Positions 3,880 through 25,389 of a stretch of 25,786 nt of DNA are shown one piece after another. The DNA is taken from the NCBI GenBank assembly GCA_028696635.1, contig JAQVGR010000001.1, positions 1 to 25,786 of the forward strand, given 5' to 3'. The stretch is from Candidatus Krumholzibacteriia bacterium. Lineage in GTDB: Bacteria; Krumholzibacteriota; Krumholzibacteriia; Krumholzibacteriales; Krumholzibacteriaceae. Numbering within the stretch: the first letter of the stretch is position 1; every line of letters starts with the position of its first letter. Made by a program: the position numbers and the translations under genes. The notes under the pieces are model-generated. The model was not told where the DNA came from. It was given only the letters and a program-made list of their open reading frames with translations, and searched no databases.

Positions 3880-5121
3880 TCAATCGGCGAATCTCCTCAG
3901 CAGGAGACTTACGTTGTGTCCGCCGAATCCAAGCGAATTGCTCAGGGCAAATTCGAACTCCTTGGGCATGGCTTTGTTCGGCACGTGGTTGACAGCGCAC
4001 TCCGGATCGATGTTGTCGAGGTTCGCGGTCGGAGGCATGATCTGCTCGATCAGGGCGCGCGCGGTCATGATGAACTCGAGCCCTGCCGCGGCGCCGAGCA
4101 TGTGGCCGGAGCAGGACTTTGTCGAGCTCACGTGCAGATCGTCCCTCCCACCGAAGACCGCGACGATCGCCTCCGCTTCCGCCTTGTCGTTGTACTTCGT
4201 CGAGGTGCCGTGCGCGTTGATGTAACCCACCCGGTCGAGCCCGATCCCCGCGTCGCGCACGGCGCGCCGCATCGCCTCGCCCGGGCCGATCCCTCCGGGT
4301 GCCGGAGCGGTCATGTGGTAGGCGTCCCCCGTCATGCCGACCCCGGCGAGCTCGGCGTATATCGTCGCGCCTCTCGCGCGCGCGTGAGCGAGCTCCTCGA
4401 GCAGGACGATCCCCGCTCCCTCCGCCATCACGAAGCCGTCCCGGTCGACGTCGAAGGGGCGGCTCGCCCGCCGCGGTTCGTCGTTGCGGGTGGAGAGCGC
4501 TTTCATGGAGCAGAACCCGCCGAGGGCCATCGGGGAAATCGTTCCCTCCGTCCCGCCGGTGAGCATGGCATCGGCATGGCCGGCCTTGATGAGCAGGTAC
4601 GACATCGCGATCGCGTGGCCGCCCGAAGCGCAGGCCGAGACGGTCGCGAAATTGGGGCCCTTCAGGCCGTATCTGATGGATGCCAGACCCGAGGTCATGT
4701 CGATGATCATCAGCGGGATGAAGAAGGGGCTGATCTTCGAAGGCCCTTTCTCGAGGTACACGGCGTGCTGCTCCTCGAAGGTGAGGATGCCCCCGATCCC
4801 GGAGCCGATGACGACGCCGAAGTTCTCGCGGTCGAACTCGGCTCCCTCGAGATCCCGCATTGCCTCGACGGATGCCGCCATCGCCAGCTGCGTCGACCGG
4901 TCCATCCGCCTGGCGTCCTTCTTGTCGATGTACTTCAGCGGATCGAAGCTCTTGACCTCGCCGCCGATCTGCGAGCTGAACCCGCTGACGTCGAAGGCCG
5001 TGATCCTGTCGATCCCGGACCTTCCCGCGCTGATGTTCAGCCAGTTCTCCTCGACGGTCTCACCGCAGGGGCTCACGAGCCCCATGCCGGTAACGACCAC
5101 GCGTCTGCCGTTCGCGGACAC
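3880..5121 (-). CDS. fabF: 3-oxoacyl-ACP synthase II
   Basis: RRVVVTGMG start, catalytic ACASG, HGTST, GHMLGAAAG, SNSLGFGGHN; GTG start. Confidence 0.97.
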   Translation of the reverse strand: MSANGRRVVVTGMGLVSPCGETVEENWLNISAGRSGIDRITAFDVSGFSSQIGGEVKSFDPLKYIDKKDARRMDRSTQLAMAASVEAMRDLEGAEFDRENFGVVIGSGIGGILTFEEQHAVYLEKGPSKISPFFIPLMIIDMTSGLASIRYGLKGPNFATVSACASGGHAIAMSYLLIKAGHADAMLTGGTEGTISPMALGGFCSMKALSTRNDEPRRASRPFDVDRDGFVMAEGAGIVLLEELAHARARGATIYAELAGVGMTGDAYHMTAPAPGGIGPGEAMRRAVRDAGIGLDRVGYINAHGTSTKYNDKAEAEAIVAVFGGRDDLHVSSTKSCSGHMLGAAAGLEFIMTARALIEQIMPPTANLDNIDPECAVNHVPNKAMPKEFEFALSNSLGFGGHNVSLLLRRFAD

Positions 5122-5172
5122 TCTCTGTCTCTCCGATCACTGATGGTGTGTGCGCGCTCTCCCGACCGATCG

Positions 5173-5412
5173 CTACTCGGTCACGTGCGCCTTTACGTAA
5201 TCGATCGCTTCGCCGACCTTCGTGATCTTCTCGGCCTCTTCGTCGGGGATCTCGACCCCGAACTCCTCCTCGAGCGCCATCACGAGCTCGACCGTATCGA
5301 GCGAGTCGGCGCCGAGATCGTCGATGAACGACGCTTCGACGGTGATCTGGTCCTGATTGACCGACAGCTGATCCTCGATGACCTTCCTCACGCGTTCCTC
5401 GATCGTTGCCAT
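5173..5412 (-). CDS. acpP: Acyl carrier protein
   Basis: [20 protein letters not shown] phosphopantetheine motif; SD AGGAGG. Confidence 0.98.
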
Positions 5413-5440
5413 GCTTCAGAAACCTCCTTGCCTGAGTCGA

Positions 5441-6199
5441 CTACCGTGCCATGACCATGCCGCCGTCGCAGTTCACGACCTGCCCGGTCACGTACGACCC
5501 GAGATCGGAAACGAGGAACAGGACCACATTGGCCACGTCCCCTCCGCTCCCGAACCGCCCGAGCGGTATCATGCGACGCATCTGATCCTGTACCTCTTCG
5601 GGTAGAACAGCCGTCATCGGCGTGTCTATGAAACCGGGGGCGATCGCGTTGACCGTCACTCCGCGAGGAGCGAGCTCCTTCGCGGCCGATTTCGTGAAAC
5701 CGATGATCCCTGCCTTGCTGGCGGCGTAGTTGCTCTGACCAGCGTTCCCCATCTGCCCGATCACCGAGGCGATGTTCACGATGCGGCCCGACCGCTTCCT
5801 GAACATGTGCTTCGCCACCGCCCTCGTCATGTTGAACGTGCCGGTGAGATTGATGCGCAGGACGCGCTCCCACTCCTCGCCGCTCATGCGCAACAGCAGG
5901 TTGTCCCGCGTGATCCCCGCGTTGTTCACGAGGATATGGACCTGCTCGCGCCATTCGAGGACCTCCCGGACGCAGCGCTGCACGTCCTCGGCGTCCGACA
6001 CGTCGCATCTGAGCGCGAGCGCTCCGCGCCCGGCCTCCTCGACGAGACCGGCCGTCTGGGCCGCGCCCTCCACGTCGACGTCGAGAACGGCCGTATCGGC
6101 GCCGCTCCCCGCGAGGGCGAGGCATATATCCCGCCCGATGCCGCGGCCGGCGCCGGTGACGATCGCCGTTGTTCCTTCGATCCCTTTCATATCGACCAT
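5441..6199 (-). CDS. fabG: 3-oxoacyl-ACP reductase (start may be ATG 6190)
   Basis: TGAGRGIG, NNAGITRD, YAASK catalytic motif, VNAIAPGFIDTPMT; position in fab cluster. Confidence 0.96.
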   Translation of the reverse strand: MVDMKGIEGTTAIVTGAGRGIGRDICLALAGSGADTAVLDVDVEGAAQTAGLVEEAGRGALALRCDVSDAEDVQRCVREVLEWREQVHILVNNAGITRDNLLLRMSGEEWERVLRINLTGTFNMTRAVAKHMFRKRSGRIVNIASVIGQMGNAGQSNYAASKAGIIGFTKSAAKELAPRGVTVNAIAPGFIDTPMTAVLPEEVQDQMRRMIPLGRFGSGGDVANVVLFLVSDLGSYVTGQVVNCDGGMVMAR

Positions 6200-6201
6200 G
6201 C

Positions 6202-6231
6202 TCTATAGCAAAAGCCCGCGCGGTTCGTAAA
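6202..6231 (-). promoter_or_regulatory. Candidate internal promoter before fabG (TTTACG-N18-TATAGA with TG extension)
   Basis: Minus strand reads tttacg aaccgcgcgggcttttgc tataga gcATG; no SD before either fabG ATG. Confidence 0.35.
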
Positions 6232-6236
6232 GCATT

Positions 6237-7187
6237 TTATGAGACGGCGACGGCTTCGATCGCCGCGGCGACCTGATCGGCCGTGCCCACCGATGCGACC
6301 GGACGGTCGCGCCGAATCCGTTTCATGAGGCCGGTAAGGACCTTGCCCGGTCCGACCTCCATGATCTCGCCGTCCCACCGGTCGGCGAGCGCGGTCATCG
6401 AGTCGGACCACAGGACCGGGCTTGTCAGCTGGCGCGAGAGCGCGTCGATGATCTCGCCGGAGGCCCTGACGATCTTCGCATCGGCGTTGGTAATCACCCC
6501 GACCGGCGCGTCGCCGACGGGAAAGCTCCTGATATAATCGACCAGCTCGGTCTGCGCGGAGGCGACGAGCGGCGAGTGGAACGCCCCGCTCACGTTCAGA
6601 CGGACGACCTTCGAGGCACCCTTCGACTCGGCGATCCGCATCGCCTCCTCGACCGCCTCGATCTCTCCCGAGACGACGATCTGGCCGGGCGCGTTGATAT
6701 TGGCCGTTACGACGGTGCGCCCGCCGGACGCCGCCTCCCTGCAGACCTCGTCGACGACCTCGCGCTCGAGGCCGATGATCGCAGCCATCGTGCCCGGCTG
6801 CCTGAGCCCCGCCTCGTACATGAGCTCGCCGCGCCTGCGGACGATCCGCAGCGCGTCGGTCCATTCGAGGGCCCCGACGCAGGCGAGCGCCGAGTACTCG
6901 CCGAGGCTGTGCCCCGCCGCGATCGCCGGTTCGACGCCCGCCTCCTCGCTCAGGATCCGCGCGACGACCACGCTGCAGAGCAGGATGGCCGGCTGCGCGT
7001 TGCGCGTCTCGGTGAGGACCTCGGGATCGCCCTGGAAACAGAGCCTGGAGAGCTTCATTTCGAGGATATCGTCGGCCTGCCGGTAGATCTCGGCGGCGGC
7101 GGGAAACCGCTCGGCGAGGTCCTTTCCCATCCCCGCGTACTGCGAACCCTGCCCGGGGAAGAGCATCGCCGTCTTCTTCGCTGCCAT
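6237..7187 (-). CDS. fabD: Malonyl-CoA:ACP transacylase
   Basis: FPGQGSQ, GHSLGEYSAL catalytic motif, VSGAFHSPL, EVGPGKVLTGL; SD AAAGGAG fits ATG 7187 better than GTG 7190. Confidence 0.97.
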   Translation of the reverse strand: MAAKKTAMLFPGQGSQYAGMGKDLAERFPAAAEIYRQADDILEMKLSRLCFQGDPEVLTETRNAQPAILLCSVVVARILSEEAGVEPAIAAGHSLGEYSALACVGALEWTDALRIVRRRGELMYEAGLRQPGTMAAIIGLEREVVDEVCREAASGGRTVVTANINAPGQIVVSGEIEAVEEAMRIAESKGASKVVRLNVSGAFHSPLVASAQTELVDYIRSFPVGDAPVGVITNADAKIVRASGEIIDALSRQLTSPVLWSDSMTALADRWDGEIMEVGPGKVLTGLMKRIRRDRPVASVGTADQVAAAIEAVAVS

Positions 7188-7233
7188 CACGTCTCCTTTA
7201 TCCGTCCGGAGCGCCGTTGCGACGGGCCCCGCA

Positions 7234-8232
7234 TCAATACCGCGCCAGGACCGCGCCCCAGGTGAGCCCGCCGCCGAAGGCGACCATCATCACCAGGTCC
7301 CCCTTGTGCAGCGTGCCGCCGTCCCTGAGCTCCGAGAGGGCGATCGGGATGCTCGCCGAGGAGGTGTTCCCGATCCGGTCGATATTGACGACGACCTGTT
7401 CCTTCGCGAGTTTCAGGCGTTTCCTGACCCCCTCGATGATGCGGATGTTCGCCTGGTGGGGGATCAGGTAGTCAATGTCGGAAAGCTGCAACCCCGCCTC
7501 GTCGAGGGTGCTGCGCGCCGCGTCGACCATCGCGCGGACGGCGTACTTGAACAGCCCGTCGCCCCTCATCTTGACGTACTGCTGGCGTTCCGCTATCCGT
7601 TGCGCGTCGAGCGGCATCCGCGAGCCGCCGCCGGGGACGTAGAGAAGCTCGCCGAGCGAGCCGTCGCACTGCATGAACGTGCCGAGAATCCCTTCGCCTT
7701 CGGGGCCCTCCTCGAGGACGACGGCGCCGGCGCCGTCGCCGAATAGGACGCACGTCGCCCGGTCCTCGTAGTCGAGGATCCGCGAGAGCACCTCGACCCC
7801 GACGATCAGGATCTTCTTCGCCCTGCCCGCGGCGATCAGGGCGTGGCCCGTGGTCAATCCGTATACGAACCCCGAGCAGGCCGCCGAAAGATCGAACCCG
7901 GCGGCGCGCTTCGCCCCGAGCCGGCTCTGCAGCAGGCAGGCGGTGGCGGGCAGGGACATGTCCGGGGTCACGGTGGAAACGATGATCAGGTCGAGCTCGT
8001 CCGCCGCGACCCCGGCGTCCTCGATGGCGCGCCTGGCCGCGTTCAGGGCGAGATCGCTCGCCGCCTCGGACTCGTCCGCGATGCGGCGCTCGCGGATCCC
8101 CGAACGCGTGACGATCCACTCATCGCTCGTATCGACCATCTTCTCGAGATCGAAGTTGGTCAGCACCCGCTCGGGCAGGTAATGCCCGATCCCGGTGATC
8201 CGCGCGCCTTTCGGCTGAATCCCTCTCGTCAC
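7234..8232 (-). CDS. fabH: 3-oxoacyl-ACP synthase III
   Basis: ITGIGHYLP, AACSG (Cys), PHQAN (His), GNTSSAS (Asn), AFGGGLTWG; GTG start overlaps plsX stop (GTGA). Confidence 0.96.
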   Translation of the reverse strand: MTRGIQPKGARITGIGHYLPERVLTNFDLEKMVDTSDEWIVTRSGIRERRIADESEAASDLALNAARRAIEDAGVAADELDLIIVSTVTPDMSLPATACLLQSRLGAKRAAGFDLSAACSGFVYGLTTGHALIAAGRAKKILIVGVEVLSRILDYEDRATCVLFGDGAGAVVLEEGPEGEGILGTFMQCDGSLGELLYVPGGGSRMPLDAQRIAERQQYVKMRGDGLFKYAVRAMVDAARSTLDEAGLQLSDIDYLIPHQANIRIIEGVRKRLKLAKEQVVVNIDRIGNTSSASIPIALSELRDGGTLHKGDLVMMVAFGGGLTWGAVLARY

Positions 8233-9230
8233 GACCCTGTCCCTCCGACCTTTTCCTTGATGCGCCTGTTCACGCCGTTGAGCACGAACCGCTCGGCCGC
8301 GAGAACGGCGTTCCTGACGGCCTTGGCGGACGATCCGCCGTGACCGATTATCATCACTCCATCGACGCCGAGCAGCGGCATTCCCCCGTACTCGGCATAA
8401 TCGAGGGTCCGCTTCATATGCGAGAAAGCGGGCCTCATCAACAGGGCCCCCGCCCTCGCGAGCAGGCTGTCCTCGATCCCCTCGCGCAGCAGCGTGCCGA
8501 CGTACGAGACGATGCTCTCTGCGAACTTCAGCAGCACGTTGCCGACGAATCCGTCGGTGACGACGACGTCGACCGTGCCGGATATGACGTCCCGGCCCTC
8601 GACGTTCCCCGCGAAGTTCAGTCCGCTCGCCGCGATTCGCCGGTGCGCCTCGCGCGTCAGATCGTTCCCCTTCGAAGGCTCCTCGCCGATGCTGAGCAGT
8701 CCGATCCTCGGATTCGTCCGTCCGAGGAAGAGCTCCGCGTAGGCGGAGCCCATCAGGGCGAACTGCTCGAGATGGACCGGCAGGCATTCGGCGTTCGCTC
8801 CCCCGTCGAGCACTATCGTCCCGCCGTTGCGGGACGGATAGAGGATCGCGATCGCCGGCCTGTCGATCCCCGGTATCCTCCCCAGCGAGAGCAGCGCGCT
8901 CGCCACCGCCGCCCCGGTGTTCCCCGCGCTGACCACCGCTTCGACCGCTCCCTCGCGGTGCAGACGGGTCGCGACGGCGATCGATGAATCCTTCTTGCGC
9001 CGGATCGCGGTGGCGGGGCTCTCCGACATCCCGACCGCCTCCGACGCATGCACGATCTCGAGGTGGTCCGTCGGCAGGGCGCTCTCCGCTATATGGCGCT
9101 CGATCTCCTCCCGCCTGCCCACGAGCACGATCGTGAACCGCCCCGCCCCCGCGGCAGCCGCCTCGGCGGCTCCGTCGATGATATCGAGGGGCGCCCGGTC
9201 ACCGCCCATGGCGTCCAACGCGATCTTCAT
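8229..9230 (-). CDS. plsX: Phosphate acyltransferase PlsX
   Basis: MKIALDAMGGD start, VSAGNTGA, IDRPAIA, LDGGANA, GNVEGRD, TDGFVGNV, GMPLLGVDG, HGGS; start moved from 9953 to ATG 9230 with GGAGA SD. Confidence 0.97.
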   Translation of the reverse strand: MKIALDAMGGDRAPLDIIDGAAEAAAAGAGRFTIVLVGRREEIERHIAESALPTDHLEIVHASEAVGMSESPATAIRRKKDSSIAVATRLHREGAVEAVVSAGNTGAAVASALLSLGRIPGIDRPAIAILYPSRNGGTIVLDGGANAECLPVHLEQFALMGSAYAELFLGRTNPRIGLLSIGEEPSKGNDLTREAHRRIAASGLNFAGNVEGRDVISGTVDVVVTDGFVGNVLLKFAESIVSYVGTLLREGIEDSLLARAGALLMRPAFSHMKRTLDYAEYGGMPLLGVDGVMIIGHGGSSAKAVRNAVLAAERFVLNGVNRRIKEKVGGTGS

Positions 9231-9309
9231 CGTCTCTCCAAGCCGCGCCCGTCCCCGCCCCGGCGCGCCGAAGGCGATTGGCGTACGGCCGATGCCCCCG
9301 GAGAAATCC

Positions 9310-9498
9310 CTACTCTTCTTTTTCCTTGGGCTTGACGATCTCGCGCCCGCCGTAGTATCCGCAGTTCGGACAGACCGCGTGGGCCGGCTTGGGCTGATGG
9401 CAATGCGAGCATTTCGCCAGAGACGGCGCCACGGCCTTGTAGTGCGCCCGCCGCATTCGTTTTCGCGCTTTCGATGTTCTATGCTTCGGTACAGCCAT
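9310..9498 (-). CDS. rpmF: 50S ribosomal protein L32 (zinc-ribbon form)
   Basis: MAVPKHRTSKARKRMRRAH, CxxC...CxxCGYY; SD GGAGG; canonical yceD-rpmF-plsX order. Confidence 0.96.
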   Translation of the reverse strand: MAVPKHRTSKARKRMRRAHYKAVAPSLAKCSHCHQPKPAHAVCPNCGYYGGREIVKPKEKEE

Positions 9499-9526
9499 TC
9501 CTTGACCTCCCGGTTCCGGGGAATAT

Positions 9527-10066
9527 TCACCGTTCGTCGTCTTTGTTCAACAGTTTTTTCAGATCCCCCCATCGGGGATCGCCGTTCCCGTCCCCGCAGC
9601 CGCAGGGCCCCTCGTTCCTGTTCGCCCCGCACCGGGGACAGATACCCGCGCACTCCTCCCTGCAGAGGAACCTGATCGGCATCTCGAGCAGTATCGACTC
9701 TCTCACATGGGGAAAGATGTCGTACCGGTACTCCTCCCCCTCCCCGAGCAGGACGAAATCGGCCTCTTCGATCCCTTCGGGGACTGCGGCGCCGCCTCCC
9801 CGCTGGAGCACGACGCTGAACGCCGTCTCGAGCCCGTGCTCGAACGGCGCGAGGCACCGGGCGCACTCGGCCTGTATCGCCGCACGGATCGTTCCCTCGA
9901 GCAGGAACCGGTTTCCGGACTTCGTCATGACAGCCGTGACCGCCGCCCTGCACTGCAGATCCTCCCCGCCGCCGCCGGTCAGAGCGAACCCCTCGTCGAA
10001 CGAGAAGGATTCGCGGTCCCCGGCGTGGCCGAGGTCTATCTGCATCTGCGGAAAATCCTTGTCCAT
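9527..10066 (-). CDS. yceD: YceD/DUF177 family protein
   Basis: CARCL, HVRESILLEMP, LCREECAGICPRCGANRN, DPRWGDLKKL; directly upstream of rpmF. Confidence 0.93.
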   Translation of the reverse strand: MDKDFPQMQIDLGHAGDRESFSFDEGFALTGGGGEDLQCRAAVTAVMTKSGNRFLLEGTIRAAIQAECARCLAPFEHGLETAFSVVLQRGGGAAVPEGIEEADFVLLGEGEEYRYDIFPHVRESILLEMPIRFLCREECAGICPRCGANRNEGPCGCGDGNGDPRWGDLKKLLNKDDER

Positions 10067-19069: not shown

Positions 19070-20200
19070 TCACGATATCCATCGGGCGAGACGGCTCAAT
19101 TCGATCCCGACCGCCTTCTCCGGGCAGAGCTCATGGCAGCACATGCATTGCACGCACCGCTCGTGCACGACCCGGTATTGCTCGCCGTCGGGGACGATCG
19201 CCTTCACCGGGCAGCTGCTGAAGCACATCGCGCAGCCTGTGCACCTGTCCGTGTCGATACTCAGGCGCAGCCAGACGAGCGGAGCGACCAGACGCGCCAG
19301 AGCGCCGGGCACGAGCCGGATCTTGAGGTTGGAGGGAAGCGAGAACCCCTCGATCCTCGCGCCGGCCGCATCCCCCATGACGTCTATCCTGTCGAGATCG
19401 CCGATCCCGGCTCCCGTCTGCGCGGCTATGCGCGTCGTATCGACCTGGCCGGGCCTGAAACCGATCGCCCGGGCGAGAACGGCGTCGACCGCCACCGCGT
19501 CTGTCCCCGCCGCCAGCAGTTCGATCCTTCGAGGCTCCCCCGAGCTCGGCCCGTTCCCCTCCATCGCGACCACCGCGTCGACGATCGAGAGCGCGGGGGC
19601 GATGCGCCGGTACAGCTCGACGAGCATCGCGGCGAAGGGCGCCGGCTTGGGGTAGAGCTTGTGCATCTCTGACTTGCGGAAGCCGGGGATCACGCCGAAG
19701 ACGTTCTTGACCGCCCCCGTCATCAGGGTCAGCGAATGCGTCTTGAGCTTGGCGAGGTTGATGACCAGATCGGCCTCGAGCACCGGCCGGGCGACGTAGA
19801 AACGGTACGGCCCCGCGTCGATCGCTGTTGAGCCCGACGCCTCGAAGTTGACCAGCTCCAGCCCGGCCCGGGCGGCCATCTCGCTCATCAGGGTGTTGTC
19901 CCAGACCCGCTGGATGCCGCGGATCGCGCCTCCGGGGCTGTCGCCGACCACCGGCTCCCCTCCCGCCTCGCGCACCATGGCGGCGACTGCCTCGACCAGA
20001 TGCGGATGGGTCGTGACGGCCCGCGGAGGGGCCTTGGCGGAGAGCAGGTTCGGCTTGAGCAGCACGCGCATCCCGGGGCGTACGAAGGCGGCGATGCCTC
20101 CGAACGGCTCGAGCGTGGCGGCGAGCGCCGCGCGCAGGGGCGCGTCATCGTACGAGTCGCATCTGACGAGGGAGACGGCGGCCCTGGTCGTCGGATCCAT
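19070..20200 (-). CDS. DUF362 domain protein with C-terminal 2x[4Fe-4S] ferredoxin
   Basis: VLLKPNLL, TTHPHLV, VGDSPG, INLAKLKTH, GAVKNVFG, MEGNGPSSG; CTGCAMCFSSCP and CVQCMCCHELCP. Confidence 0.9.
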   Translation of the reverse strand: MDPTTRAAVSLVRCDSYDDAPLRAALAATLEPFGGIAAFVRPGMRVLLKPNLLSAKAPPRAVTTHPHLVEAVAAMVREAGGEPVVGDSPGGAIRGIQRVWDNTLMSEMAARAGLELVNFEASGSTAIDAGPYRFYVARPVLEADLVINLAKLKTHSLTLMTGAVKNVFGVIPGFRKSEMHKLYPKPAPFAAMLVELYRRIAPALSIVDAVVAMEGNGPSSGEPRRIELLAAGTDAVAVDAVLARAIGFRPGQVDTTRIAAQTGAGIGDLDRIDVMGDAAGARIEGFSLPSNLKIRLVPGALARLVAPLVWLRLSIDTDRCTGCAMCFSSCPVKAIVPDGEQYRVVHERCVQCMCCHELCPEKAVGIELSRLARWIS

Positions 20201-21617: not shown

Positions 21618-23345
21618 TCAACGGGCCGTATTCTTCGCGGCCACTTCCTCCTCCCGGAGCTGCTCGATCTTGGCGAGCATCTGCTTGCCGTTCTCGTTCT
21701 CCGGATTCAGCGCGAGCGACTTCTCGTAGAACTTCTGCGCCTTGTCGAGCTTGCCGGCGACGAGCAATCCCTCTCCGAGGCTGTCGTAGACGTTCCACGA
21801 TTCGGGGTACATCTCGACGTTGTTCTTGAAAACGTAGATCGCCTCTTCGACCTTCCCGTTGTGCAGCAGGACGTACCCGAGGGTGTTGAACTCGCTCTCC
21901 TTGAAATAGTATTCCGAGGAGCCCGACTGCTCCATCTTCTGCAGCTTCTGCAGCACGGCCCCCGCCTTTTCCTGCCCTTCCTTCTTCAGGGCCATCGCGA
22001 ACTCGACCGCCGCGGAGCTTCCCTTTCCCTCTTCCATGATCTTCTGCCAGGTCATCTCGACCTTGGCCTTCGGATCAGTCGGGAACTCGCCCGCCTCCGT
22101 CTTTTCCTTCATCATCATCTTCTTCTCGAGCTGCAGCTTCTTGAGCTCTTCATCGGTCAGTTGCTTCTCGTGCTGCAGCTTTTTCATTTCCTCTTCGGTC
22201 AGCTTCTGTTCAGCCTCACGCTTGATCTTCACCTTCCGGACATCCTCGTCGTCCTTCTCCTGGGCCTGGATCTGCCAGATCCCCGAGACGGACAGCGGAA
22301 ACACGAGACTGAGGACGAGAATGCCTGCGACGATCGCAGACCTGCGCCCTCCGGTGCTCCTGTTCACCCCCGGGTTGAGGATGCACAGCAGCCGGTCCTT
22401 GAGATTGGATCCCTGCGAAATCATGACTGCCTCCCATGCCGGTCTCGCCGCGCTGCCGAGATCGGCGGCGATGTCCATCAGCAGCGAAGCGTAGGCCGAA
22501 GGCCGTACGCCGCAGCCGAGGACGGCGTTGTCGCAATCGCGCTCGCGCTCGATCCGCAGGCGCCTGACGGCGAGCCAGGCCAGCGGATTGAACCAGTGGA
22601 GCACGGTCGCGGAATGAGCGAGCAGCTCGATCCATCCGTCGCGGCGCTTGACGTGCGCCAGCTCGTGGGACAGGACGAGCCGCAGACGTTCCTCGGACCA
22701 GGCGGTCGACGCGGAAGGAAGGATCACGGCGGGGTCGGCGCATCCCGTCGTGATCCCGGTCATCACACGCTCCGACAGGAGGACGCGCACGGGGCGCTCC
22801 AGGCCTATCTCCGCCGCCGTCGCTCTCGCCACGGCGCGGAGCCTGTCGCCGGCGGGGACCGCTCCCCGCGCGACCCTCCCGGCGATCGCGGTCGTGAAGA
22901 GGAACCACGCCATCATGACGACAGCGCCGGCGATCCAGACGAGAAGCACGACCTCGGACCAGTGGAGTCCGATCGCTCCGGACCGTCCGGCCGCGTCGAT
23001 CGAGGGTGTCCCGGCCGGAGACGGAGGTCCGACGAGGATCTCCTTTCCCGAAACCGCGCTGAGATCGCCGTCCGGCCCGGCGGATACGGGAGCGTCCGCC
23101 ATCGCCGGCAGCAGGCCGAGGTTCCACATCGGGGTCAACGGCGCCATCGCGGGGATCAGGAGCAACCCCGCGACCGCCGCGACCCAGATCATCTTCCGCG
23201 TGTATGCCGAAGAACCGCGCATCATCAGCGTCGTCGCTCCCGCGGCGGCGCAGAGCATCGCTCCCTTGAGGGAGACCCCGGCGATCAGCTGGAGGATCTC
23301 GTACCGGGGCATGCCGGCCATGAGCGTGGAAAAGAAGCCGTCCAT
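21618..23345 (-). CDS. BlaR1/MecR1-like M56 membrane metalloprotease-sensor with C-terminal TPR domain
   Basis: N-terminal TM helices, PAVILP, HELAHVKRRD (HExxH), ERERDCD, LKDRL, final TM, then charged linker and TPR-like NTLGYVLL...NVYDSLGE...YEKSLALNP; 1 nt after the blaI-like stop. Confidence 0.92.
   Translation of the reverse strand: MDGFFSTLMAGMPRYEILQLIAGVSLKGAMLCAAAGATTLMMRGSSAYTRKMIWVAAVAGLLLIPAMAPLTPMWNLGLLPAMADAPVSAGPDGDLSAVSGKEILVGPPSPAGTPSIDAAGRSGAIGLHWSEVVLLVWIAGAVVMMAWFLFTTAIAGRVARGAVPAGDRLRAVARATAAEIGLERPVRVLLSERVMTGITTGCADPAVILPSASTAWSEERLRLVLSHELAHVKRRDGWIELLAHSATVLHWFNPLAWLAVRRLRIERERDCDNAVLGCGVRPSAYASLLMDIAADLGSAARPAWEAVMISQGSNLKDRLLCILNPGVNRSTGGRRSAIVAGILVLSLVFPLSVSGIWQIQAQEKDDEDVRKVKIKREAEQKLTEEEMKKLQHEKQLTDEELKKLQLEKKMMMKEKTEAGEFPTDPKAKVEMTWQKIMEEGKGSSAAVEFAMALKKEGQEKAGAVLQKLQKMEQSGSSEYYFKESEFNTLGYVLLHNGKVEEAIYVFKNNVEMYPESWNVYDSLGEGLLVAGKLDKAQKFYEKSLALNPENENGKQMLAKIEQLREEEVAAKNTAR
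22122..22205 (-). repeat. 42-bp tandem duplication (2 copies, 33/42 identical) encoding a 14-aa charged repeat
   Basis: KLTEEEMKKLQHEK / QLTDEELKKLQLEK. Confidence 0.85.
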
Positions 23346-23346
23346 C

Positions 23347-23739
23347 TCACCGGCCCTCCTTCCGGGACCGGTCGATCAGATCCTCGATCGCCCGGACCTC
23401 TTCGCCGGAGAGCCTGCCCTCCGACTCCTTCAGTATCGAGATGACGGCGTTCGCCTCGGCGCCCTTGAAAAAAGTGTCGAGCACGTTCGCCAGCGCCGTC
23501 GTCCGGGCCTTCTGCAGCGGGATCGTCGGATAGTAGATGTACCGCCCCTTCTCCGTCTCGTGCCGCAGGAACCCCTTGTCCTCGAGCACGCCGAGCATCG
23601 TCCGCACCGTGGCGTTGACCGGCCTGTCGGGGAGGGCTTCCATCACCTCCACCGCGCTCACCCGTCCGAGACGGTAGACGATCTCCATGATCTGCCTCTC
23701 CCGCCGCGTGAGGTTACCGAGCTGTGGTTTCTTGCCCAT
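23347..23739 (-). CDS. BlaI/MecI/CopY family transcriptional repressor
   Basis: LTRRERQIMEIVY, TVRTMLGVLEDKGFL, GRYIYYP, LDTFFKG, IEDLID; start set to ATG 23739 (SD AAGGGAG). Confidence 0.93.
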   Translation of the reverse strand: MGKKPQLGNLTRRERQIMEIVYRLGRVSAVEVMEALPDRPVNATVRTMLGVLEDKGFLRHETEKGRYIYYPTIPLQKARTTALANVLDTFFKGAEANAVISILKESEGRLSGEEVRAIEDLIDRSRKEGR

Positions 23740-23812: not shown

Positions 23813-23887
23813 ATGCCAAATCTTTCACATGAGAAATATTTAACATCTTTGCCCGCCTGTCAAGGGGAAATGTTAAATTTTTCTCAT
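23813..23887. promoter_or_regulatory. Operator/promoter region with three copies of ATG-N2-AAATNTTT-N2-CAT and a minus-strand TTGACA
   Basis: 23813-23830 ATGCCAAATCTTTCACAT; 23829-23846 ATGAGAAATATTTAACAT; 23870-23887 ATGTTAAATTTTTCTCAT; TTGACA at 23863-23858 (minus). Confidence 0.8.
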
Positions 23888-25044: not shown

Positions 25045-25389
25045 TCAGTTCACGATCTTGCTCTTCAGATGCTCTATCAGCGCGCTCTTGATCAGCTCCA
25101 GAGCGTCTTCCTCCGCGTCTTCGTAGTCCACCAGCCCGCTGACCGAATAATCGGTCAACAGACGGTTCTTTTCAAGATGTTCGATGACGGACCGCTTGTC
25201 GCCTTCGGTCACGTCGGGCTTCTCATCGCTCGCGAAGACGAGGCTCTGCCAGCTCCACGGCCTGAGGACGCCTCCGTTGGAGGTGCATCCGATCCTCGTC
25301 AGATGATCGAGGTATTCGTCGATGACCCTGTTGTTCTCATCGACGCTCAGCCCGTCGATGGTCTTGAACGAGACCCAGAACGCCTTCAT
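25045..25389 (-). CDS. Hypothetical protein, YggL/DUF469-like
   Basis: SD AAAGGAG; pattern F.V.F...G.S.D....VID.Y...GG...W..L...VTE....V...LE...V..L.D resembles the YggL core as recalled; not verified. Confidence 0.6.
   Translation of the reverse strand: MKAFWVSFKTIDGLSVDENNRVIDEYLDHLTRIGCTSNGGVLRPWSWQSLVFASDEKPDVTEGDKRSVIEHLEKNRLLTDYSVSGLVDYEDAEEDALELIKSALIEHLKSKIVN

Follow-up and report, generated by a model that had tools for sequence, protein, structure and literature searches.

The BlaI/BlaR1 pair, in which a repressor gene is followed by the gene of a membrane zinc protease of the M56 family, is the textbook antibiotic-sensing switch, yet most M56 proteins carry no penicillin-binding sensor (10.64898/2026.04.08.717257). 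In a survey of ~15,000 M56 proteins, 254 domain architectures were distinguished; the penicillin-binding type accounts for only ~6%, and ~96% of the proteins are encoded near a BlaI gene. A C-terminal TonB_C domain makes up the second commonest architecture, and the tetratricopeptide repeat (TPR) is absent from the nine architectures with at least 100 entries (10.64898/2026.04.08.717257). Several non-canonical pairs, namely CenIR of C. difficile, PvmSR of P. aeruginosa, BlaIR of Mycobacterium and cyanobacterial PetR/PetP, include an M56 protein devoid of a transpeptidase domain and respond to signals other than beta-lactams (10.64898/2026.04.08.717257; 10.64898/2026.08.03.742534; PMC7896320). 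Here we analyse another such pair, located in a 25,786-nt stretch of contig JAQVGR010000001.1 of a Candidatus Krumholzibacteriia bacterium (hereafter the window), whose M56 protein ends in a TPR domain. A preliminary description of the window had proposed that this pair senses a periplasmic protein or peptide through the TPR, controls an unknown regulon and is not a beta-lactam resistance locus; it had also noted, correctly, that M56 proteins with varied C-termini are already known (10.64898/2026.04.08.717257).

The gene pair is probably autoregulated through three predicted operators, and in sister genomes the same predicted operator is shared between blaI and genes for proteins predicted to be secreted or to lie in the outer membrane. 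This operator is sharply defined, so that genome sequences sufficed to derive a first candidate regulon. The result cautions against labelling such BlaI/M56 pairs as beta-lactam resistance determinants.

A BlaI-type repressor gene coupled to an M56-TPR gene

Both genes are carried by the minus strand. The blaI-like open reading frame (ORF; 23347-23739) encodes a 130-aa protein starting with MGKKPQ and is followed, after a single nucleotide (TGA g ATG), by an ORF of 575 aa (21618-23345) with matches to the Peptidase_M56, TPR_2 and TPR_1 families of Pfam. At this start of the repressor, GGGAG stands 8-12 nt before the ATG. A longer ORF of 155 aa, reaching position 23814, was set aside, as GGGAG precedes the inner ATG and homologues are 129-130 aa long in all loci examined.

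The repressor matches Penicillinase_R (PF03965) at 3.2e-24 (85.9 bits, cut-off 22.6) over profile positions 1-114 of 115 and aligns with MecI (1SD6/1OKR) across aa 11-123. On these sequence matches it belongs to the BlaI/MecI/CopY family, with a predicted winged helix and C-terminal dimerisation domain. The M56 protein matches PF05569 at 3.3e-34 (118.9 bits, cut-off 31) over aa 129-321, and both motifs noted earlier are intact: the zinc site HELAH (HExxH type, aa 227-231) and ERERDCD (aa 266-272), which are invariant in 50 homologues, including H227, E228 and H231. An AlphaFold2 model built on these 50 homologues (mean predicted local distance difference test, pLDDT, 78.9) gives a protease core above 90. 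When this model was compared with the PDB using Foldseek, S. aureus BlaR1 came out on top (8EXT/8EXS/8EXP/8EXR; for 8EXR_A, TMt 0.63, root-mean-square deviation 3.0 Å across 180 columns, probability 1.00), followed by E. coli BepA (6AIT, 6SAR). A profile score above the gathering threshold, the HExxH motif and a BlaR1-like transmembrane and protease fold thus characterize the protein as an M56 protease.

Hydropathy delineates four hydrophobic segments (~16-41, 52-70, 129-156 and 335-360). The N-terminal membrane part (22878-23345) comprises transmembrane segments TM1-TM3, modelled as helices 14-41, 47-70 and 129-161, together with a disordered and probably periplasmic loop (aa 73-123, pLDDT <50). 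It precedes the predicted cytoplasmic protease core (aa 157-334; 22344-22877, HELAH at 22653-22667). TM4 (aa 335-360; 22266-22343) belongs to a modelled helix spanning aa 334-387, which runs on into a Glu/Lys-rich, presumably helical stalk of 64 aa (aa 361-424; 22074-22265), modelled as long helices of low confidence. The charged stretch past TM4 contains 15 E and 16 K among the 72 aa counted (aa 361-432). Stalk length differs between homologues, from absent (P0108) to far longer than here (P0039) in the 50-homologue alignment. The loop at aa 42-51 and the start of the 157-334 domain are both rich in K/R and, following the positive-inside rule, the topology should therefore be N-out and C-out with the protease facing the cytoplasm, like that of BlaR1. 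Together with the fold shared with BlaR1, hydropathy and this charge pattern place the C-terminal domain outside the cytoplasm.

This C-terminal domain (aa 425-575; 21621-22073) is a TPR domain, predicted to be periplasmic, and is not transpeptidase-like. TPR_2 (PF07719, 34.5 bits) and TPR_1 (PF00515, 29.9 bits) both match above cut-off over aa 519-550, aa 425-574 are modelled as eight helices with pLDDT 92-98, and consensus TPR structures are matched in structure searches. The SxxK/SxN/KTG set is absent after the last transmembrane segment; a motif search returned a stray SNLK (313) and SWN (516) only, and no penicillin-binding (transpeptidase-like) Pfam domain occurs in the protein. Similarly, Pfam annotation of the ORFs of the window revealed no gene for a beta-lactamase or a penicillin-binding protein (PBP), PBP2a included. 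The generic BlaR1 model of NCBIfam (NF000326) reaches 85.2 bits where 400 are required, and its match spans aa 130-344 alone, that is, the protease core. The protein is thus in the M56/BlaI class but outside the BlaR1/MecR1 equivalogs (NF000326, NF033108, NF033109), as it has neither a penicillin-binding domain nor a linked target gene. The architecture given in the preliminary description, from the one-nucleotide gap to the charged linker, the TPR-like helices and the missing penicillin-binding domain and target gene, was borne out in all these respects.

The locus therefore resembles BlaI/BlaR1 and MecI/MecR1 of S. aureus in its order (repressor gene, then M56 membrane zinc protease gene), in its four-TM core with HExxH, for which BlaR1 is the best structural match, and in the palindromic operators over its own promoter described below. 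It differs in its extracellular domain, which is a TPR on a charged stalk instead of a penicillin-binding domain, in the lack of a linked beta-lactamase or PBP2a gene, in its operator (TGT-N10-ACA within ATGTTAAATATTTAACAT) and in the repressor, where the Asn-Phe pair is not conserved. With CenIR, PvmSR, Mycobacterium BlaIR and PetR/PetP it shares a BlaI-family repressor and an M56 protease without transpeptidase domain, but the C-termini of those proteases are short, disordered or absent, whereas the TPR domain is well folded and highly conserved. In M56-TonB_C proteins, too, the M56 core is followed by a linker able to span the periplasm, and the end domain binds proteins. By analogy, this likeness suggests coupling to outer-membrane partners, although the end domain is different here and no TonB-dependent receptor is linked.

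Three predicted operators at the blaI promoter

A promoter scan upstream of blaI detected TTGACA-17-AATATT, with 10 of 12 matches to consensus, while shuffled sequences yield 0.4 sites on average. The -35 hexamer lies at 23858-23863 and the -10 hexamer at 23835-23840 (minus strand). Three 18-bp palindromes with the consensus ATGTTAAATATTTAACAT and the core TGT-N10-ACA are predicted operators at this promoter. Site 3 (23870-23887), directly upstream of the -35 hexamer, was found both by pattern and by position weight matrix (PWM; 32.2 bits) and is kept in L005 and L006, two loci of relatives. Site 2 (23829-23846) covers the -10 hexamer and, at 35.2 bits, is the top PWM site of the genome. Finally, site 1 (23813-23830; 25.6 bits) abuts site 2 in a 16-nt register and covers the expected transcription start. 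Sites 2 and 3 also constitute the arms of a 19-nt inverted repeat, 95% complementary, that brackets the promoter, each arm being itself an 18-bp palindrome. Because the three palindromes bracket and cover its promoter, the blaI/M56 bicistron is probably autoregulated.

Conservation among relatives is consistent with this proposal. Operators are kept upstream of blaI where the M56-TPR protein is 81%, 57%, 43% and ~42-45% identical to that of the window, and a pair of sites 16 nt apart is also present in L005, L006, L080, L082 and L083. A PWM scan of the genome to which the window belongs yielded five sites above 18 bits, as compared to 0 in the reversed control: the three sites at blaI, one on contig C63 (C63:2460) and one on contig C102 (C102:1235). 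The last (22.8 bits) is situated in AT-rich mobile-element DNA beside transposase-like ORFs and was taken as a chance match.

The C63 site (C63:2460-2477, corresponding to 1501-1518 of locus L004; 32.7 bits) is a candidate fourth operator. It lies 41 nt past the gene of a protein sorted by the type IX secretion system. The start codon of the next ORF, of 141 aa, falls within the site, and this ORF matches the C-terminal half of the Fib_succ_major domain alone; the contig ends 353 nt beyond.

Operator-linked genes in sister genomes encode predicted secreted and outer-membrane proteins

Across the bacterial family of the host (43 genomes), the operator pattern has ~70 matches, as compared to ~14 for a control pattern. 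We fetched the sites lying away from blaI and examined the flanking genes, the distance to the target genes being 40-190 nt upstream. One match (G024:C277) lies inside an ORF and was taken as chance.

The most widespread targets are genes combining CBM9_1 and DUF5916 domains (741-857 aa), which have the operator upstream in nine genomes of four genera; in L081, such a gene is also found directly downstream of M56-TPR. Genes with a metallo-beta-lactamase (MBL) fold make up another group. Secreted ankyrin+MBL-fold proteins are encoded behind the operator in G003 and G037 (two copies), and genes for their orthologues directly follow M56-TPR in L007 and L082. In G014 and G032, the gene with the operator upstream encodes a 269-aa secreted MBL-fold protein (HSHGDH) and is followed, in G014, by a DUF5916-type gene. 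An intact HxHxDH motif is present in the operator-linked MBL-fold genes of G014, G003, G032 and G037. Their MBL domains match PF12706/PF13483 instead of a class-B beta-lactamase profile, and the match to PF00753 is partial (2.5e-06).

TPR-bearing proteins are also among the targets. The operator stands upstream of the gene for a secreted protein of 469-487 aa in each of the three genomes with an orthologue (G006, G013, G032). The N-terminus of this protein has an MBL fold according to the Atlas structure search (feature score 0.95, TM-score 0.75-0.84) but lacks HxHxDH, and the protein ends in the TPR module found on the sensor (44-45% identical to the sensor's). We thus consider it a likely pseudo-enzyme under predicted BlaI-operator control in these genomes (genes at L040:717-2126, L041:717-2159 and L052:1501-2871). 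Similarly, the operator is found upstream of an esterase (PF00756)+TPR gene in G031, and esterase+TPR genes share the divergent blaI promoter region in L081 and G045. In one genus, finally, a gene of 381-406 aa divergent from blaI resembles an outer-membrane barrel, with weak TraF_2 and Toluene_X matches only. Two of the target promoters copy the blaI promoter layout exactly, with TTGACA followed by two abutting sites.

Judging from these gene contents, the regulon of the sister genomes looks like an envelope and secreted-hydrolase programme rather than classical beta-lactam resistance. The interpretation given in the preliminary description is thus supported in part: the regulon formerly described as unknown has candidate members in relatives, namely the operator-linked MBL-fold, esterase-TPR and CBM9+DUF5916 genes, but none of these was found under an operator in the host genome itself. 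In that genome, which has a single BlaI gene and a single M56 gene, our predictions are restricted to autoregulation and the C63 site. The assertion that the locus does not confer beta-lactam resistance is likely to be right, but the presence of MBL-fold hydrolases in the output keeps it short of proof.

A paralogous pair was noted in L048 (G008:C1:3987500-3993000), where a 137-aa BlaI is associated with an M56 protein of 648 aa that ends in HEAT repeats. The operator of this pair, ATGTAAATTATTTTACAT, is related to that of the window, and directly downstream lies a CBM9+DUF5916 gene.

Conservation and distribution of the M56-TPR protein

Ten residues of the TPR domain are invariant in the 50-homologue alignment (S444, E483, N487, G490, Y491, W517, N518, D521, S522 and E525), and among homologues with 37-81% identity the conservation of the domain equals that of the protease core. 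Positions 2, 5 and 9 of helix A line the ligand groove in well-studied TPR domains. N487, Y491, N518, D521 and E525 occupy such positions, and the invariant groove residues would thus fit the binding of a peptide or protein.

The module is nevertheless not special to the M56 sensor. In the Atlas search, aa 432-567 align (TM-score 0.77-0.80) with the C-terminal TPR modules of many exported enzymes, including serine beta-lactamase-fold hydrolases (PF00144+DUF3471), MBL-fold proteins, S41 peptidases, FKBP, transglutaminase-like, DUF2306 and SnoaL-like proteins, mostly from Bacteroidota and Acidobacteriota. Sister genomes also hold several proteins bearing the module (40-64% identity). It is therefore a promiscuous C-terminal module. 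A comparison with 1.84 billion representatives retrieved mostly long multi-repeat TPR proteins together with a few C-terminal single-module matches and is uninformative on architecture.

More than 300 M56-TPR proteins share this length and architecture, mostly in metagenome-assembled genomes of Krumholzibacteriota and Latescibacterota. Named carriers are Candidatus Krumholzibacteria/-ota, Latescibacteria and one metagenome-assembled genome of Bacteroidales. A full-length copy was found in 13 of the 18 sister genomes for which the entire protein served as query. The architecture is thus not rare but abundant in uncultured phyla of the FCB (Fibrobacteres, Chlorobi and Bacteroidetes) group, and it is uncharacterised. 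A literature search found no paper joining "Peptidase_M56" with "tetratricopeptide", and none mentioning "DUF5916". Novelty had been placed in this particular sensor and its signal. It is lower than claimed, given the hundreds of homologues.

The neighbourhoods of M56-TPR homologues were surveyed, as had been suggested. In every locus examined, blaI is directly upstream of the M56-TPR gene, with a gap of 1-2 nt. The wider order mnmA-blaI-M56TPR-dprA-DUF362 is held in close relatives but lost in distant ones, and the conserved unit is therefore the bicistron.

Sister genus g10 departs from this arrangement (L043, L046, L094, L100). Three of its genomes, G009, G018 and G034, have lost the M56-TPR gene, so that dprA directly follows blaI, while G037 encodes the M56 part (370 aa) and the TPR part in separate frames. 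All four genomes retain blaI and its operators, and operator-linked targets are present in G009, G018 and G037. A barrel-like gene is divergent from blaI in this genus.

Proposed mechanism and alternative explanations

We favour, with a probability of about 0.6, an autoregulated proteolytic switch of the BlaI/BlaR1 class, in which the periplasmic TPR domain would receive a protein or peptide signal and the output would be an envelope and secreted-hydrolase programme. BlaI dimers bound to the three 18-bp palindromes, flanking the -35 hexamer and covering the -10 hexamer and start, would repress the bicistron. The four-helix membrane protease would expose its catalytic domain to the cytoplasm, and its charged stalk and TPR domain to the periplasm. 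A periplasmic protein or peptide ligand would be bound to, or lost from, the TPR groove, and the signal would be relayed via TM4. The activated protease would then inactivate BlaI, leading to derepression of the regulon. Of these elements, the domains, the operator motifs with their conservation and the operator-gene links of relatives were observed in the sequences; the topology, BlaI cleavage, sensing by the TPR and the kind of signal are inferred.

Several observations weigh against this proposal. The scissile bond of BlaI and MecI, which we take to be Asn101-Phe102, is aligned with Ser-Ile in the window's repressor, within a conserved AVISILK stretch, so that the repressor sequence does not support cleavage at this position. 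The occurrence of the same generic TPR module on many unrelated enzymes weakens the case for a dedicated sensor. In addition, genus g10 suggests that the repressor, the operators and the targets can persist without the M56-TPR protease. Finally, homologues of the MBL-fold and degenerate-MBL-TPR targets were not found in the host genome by tblastn (the assembly being 75% complete), and the DUF5916 homologue of this genome (contig C133) has no operator. As the assembly (2.2 Mb) is 75% complete and in 407 contigs, the host's own regulon may simply be unassembled.

In the main rival reading, the switch could be real with the TPR serving as a handle for localisation or scaffolding, for instance by docking to the envelope, while the membrane and loop part of the M56 protein senses the signal. 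This is possible though unlikely. It would account for the module also ending beta-lactamase-fold, MBL-fold, S41, FKBP, transglutaminase and esterase proteins, for the highly variable stalk length and for the state of genus g10, with M56 and TPR parts in different frames in G037 and the gene lost elsewhere while blaI stays. M56 proteins without any sensor domain have also been described (PetP, Mycobacterium BlaR and PvmS; 10.64898/2026.08.03.742534; PMC7896320). In these relatives the membrane and loop part must itself do the sensing. However, a TPR as conserved as the protease core, with invariant groove residues, and retained in more than 300 proteins, weighs against this reading. The TPR might alternatively act as an address tag common to the sensor and to some enzymes under its control (esterase-TPR and degenerate-MBL-TPR proteins). 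These proteins would then compete for, or report on, one envelope partner or substrate, possibly the CBM9+DUF5916 proteins of the same regulon, and the switch would gauge the occupancy of a docking site and adjust the supply of secreted enzymes. We put this forward as a speculation, with low odds; if true, it would represent a form of feedback that has not been described in sensors of the BlaR1 type.

Other explanations dispense with a protein or peptide signal, or with the switch altogether. A switch for resistance to an antibiotic or another small molecule, in which a compound such as a beta-lactam or lactone activates the M56 protein and the MBL-fold outputs hydrolyse it, appears very unlikely to us. 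The parent BlaI/BlaR1 family does regulate beta-lactamases, and the HxHxDH motif is intact in the operator-linked MBL-fold genes of four genomes. Conversely, none of these MBL domains fits a class-B beta-lactamase profile, the metal motif is missing from one member of the regulon, the sensor is devoid of a penicillin-binding domain, and no MBL-fold target gene was found in the host genome. The majority of operator-linked genes moreover encode CBM9+DUF5916 proteins, which we take to be putative outer-membrane barrels rather than enzymes. A metal-responsive switch of the CopY/PetR type is the least credible of the possibilities considered here. CopY/TcrY (TIGR02698) is the repressor's best NCBIfam match, and PetR/PetP is a copper-responsive BlaI/M56 pair (PMC7896320), but the CopY/TcrY score of 51.4 bits is far under the cut-off of 121.95, the 130-aa repressor contains zero cysteines and thus has no CxC motif or Cys-rich metal site, and no metal-transport gene accompanies the pair or the operator. 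We also regard it as highly improbable that the protein is an envelope quality-control protease acting on periplasmic substrates, with no mechanistic meaning in the adjacency of blaI. This would be in line with the place of BepA right behind BlaR1 in the Foldseek ranking and with weak M48 and BepA profile matches, and BepA, an M48 protease, likewise joins a gluzincin protease to a TPR, which contacts the outer-membrane assembly machinery. BepA is however soluble in the periplasm, has both domains in one compartment and lacks a repressor partner, whereas TM4 and the 64-aa stalk part the M56 protease from its TPR, hence on opposite sides of the membrane. Furthermore, the M48 match is under cut-off (17.9 versus 20.3), the BepA model NF052400 scores 16 bits for a cut-off of 570, and the coupling to blaI is invariant in all loci examined.

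Genomic surroundings of the gene pair

Within ~4 kb, the pair is flanked by mnmA, a weak YggL-like ORF, dprA, a DUF362/4Fe-4S gene and a lipid-A-type acyltransferase-like ORF, which we named after its counterpart in L006. The YggL-like ORF (25045-25389, minus strand), upstream of mnmA, scores 25.2 bits, under cut-off. The DUF362 protein (19070-20200, minus strand) has a C-terminal 2x[4Fe-4S] ferredoxin domain; its gene adjoins dprA, a pairing kept in relatives. The remainder of the window contains fatty-acid synthesis genes and sucC. The fatty-acid synthesis cluster (3880-9953, minus strand) comprises plsX-like (FA_synthesis), fabH-like, fabD-like (acyltransferase), fabG-like and fabF-like genes, the true starts of the long plsX and fabH ORFs being probably located further in.

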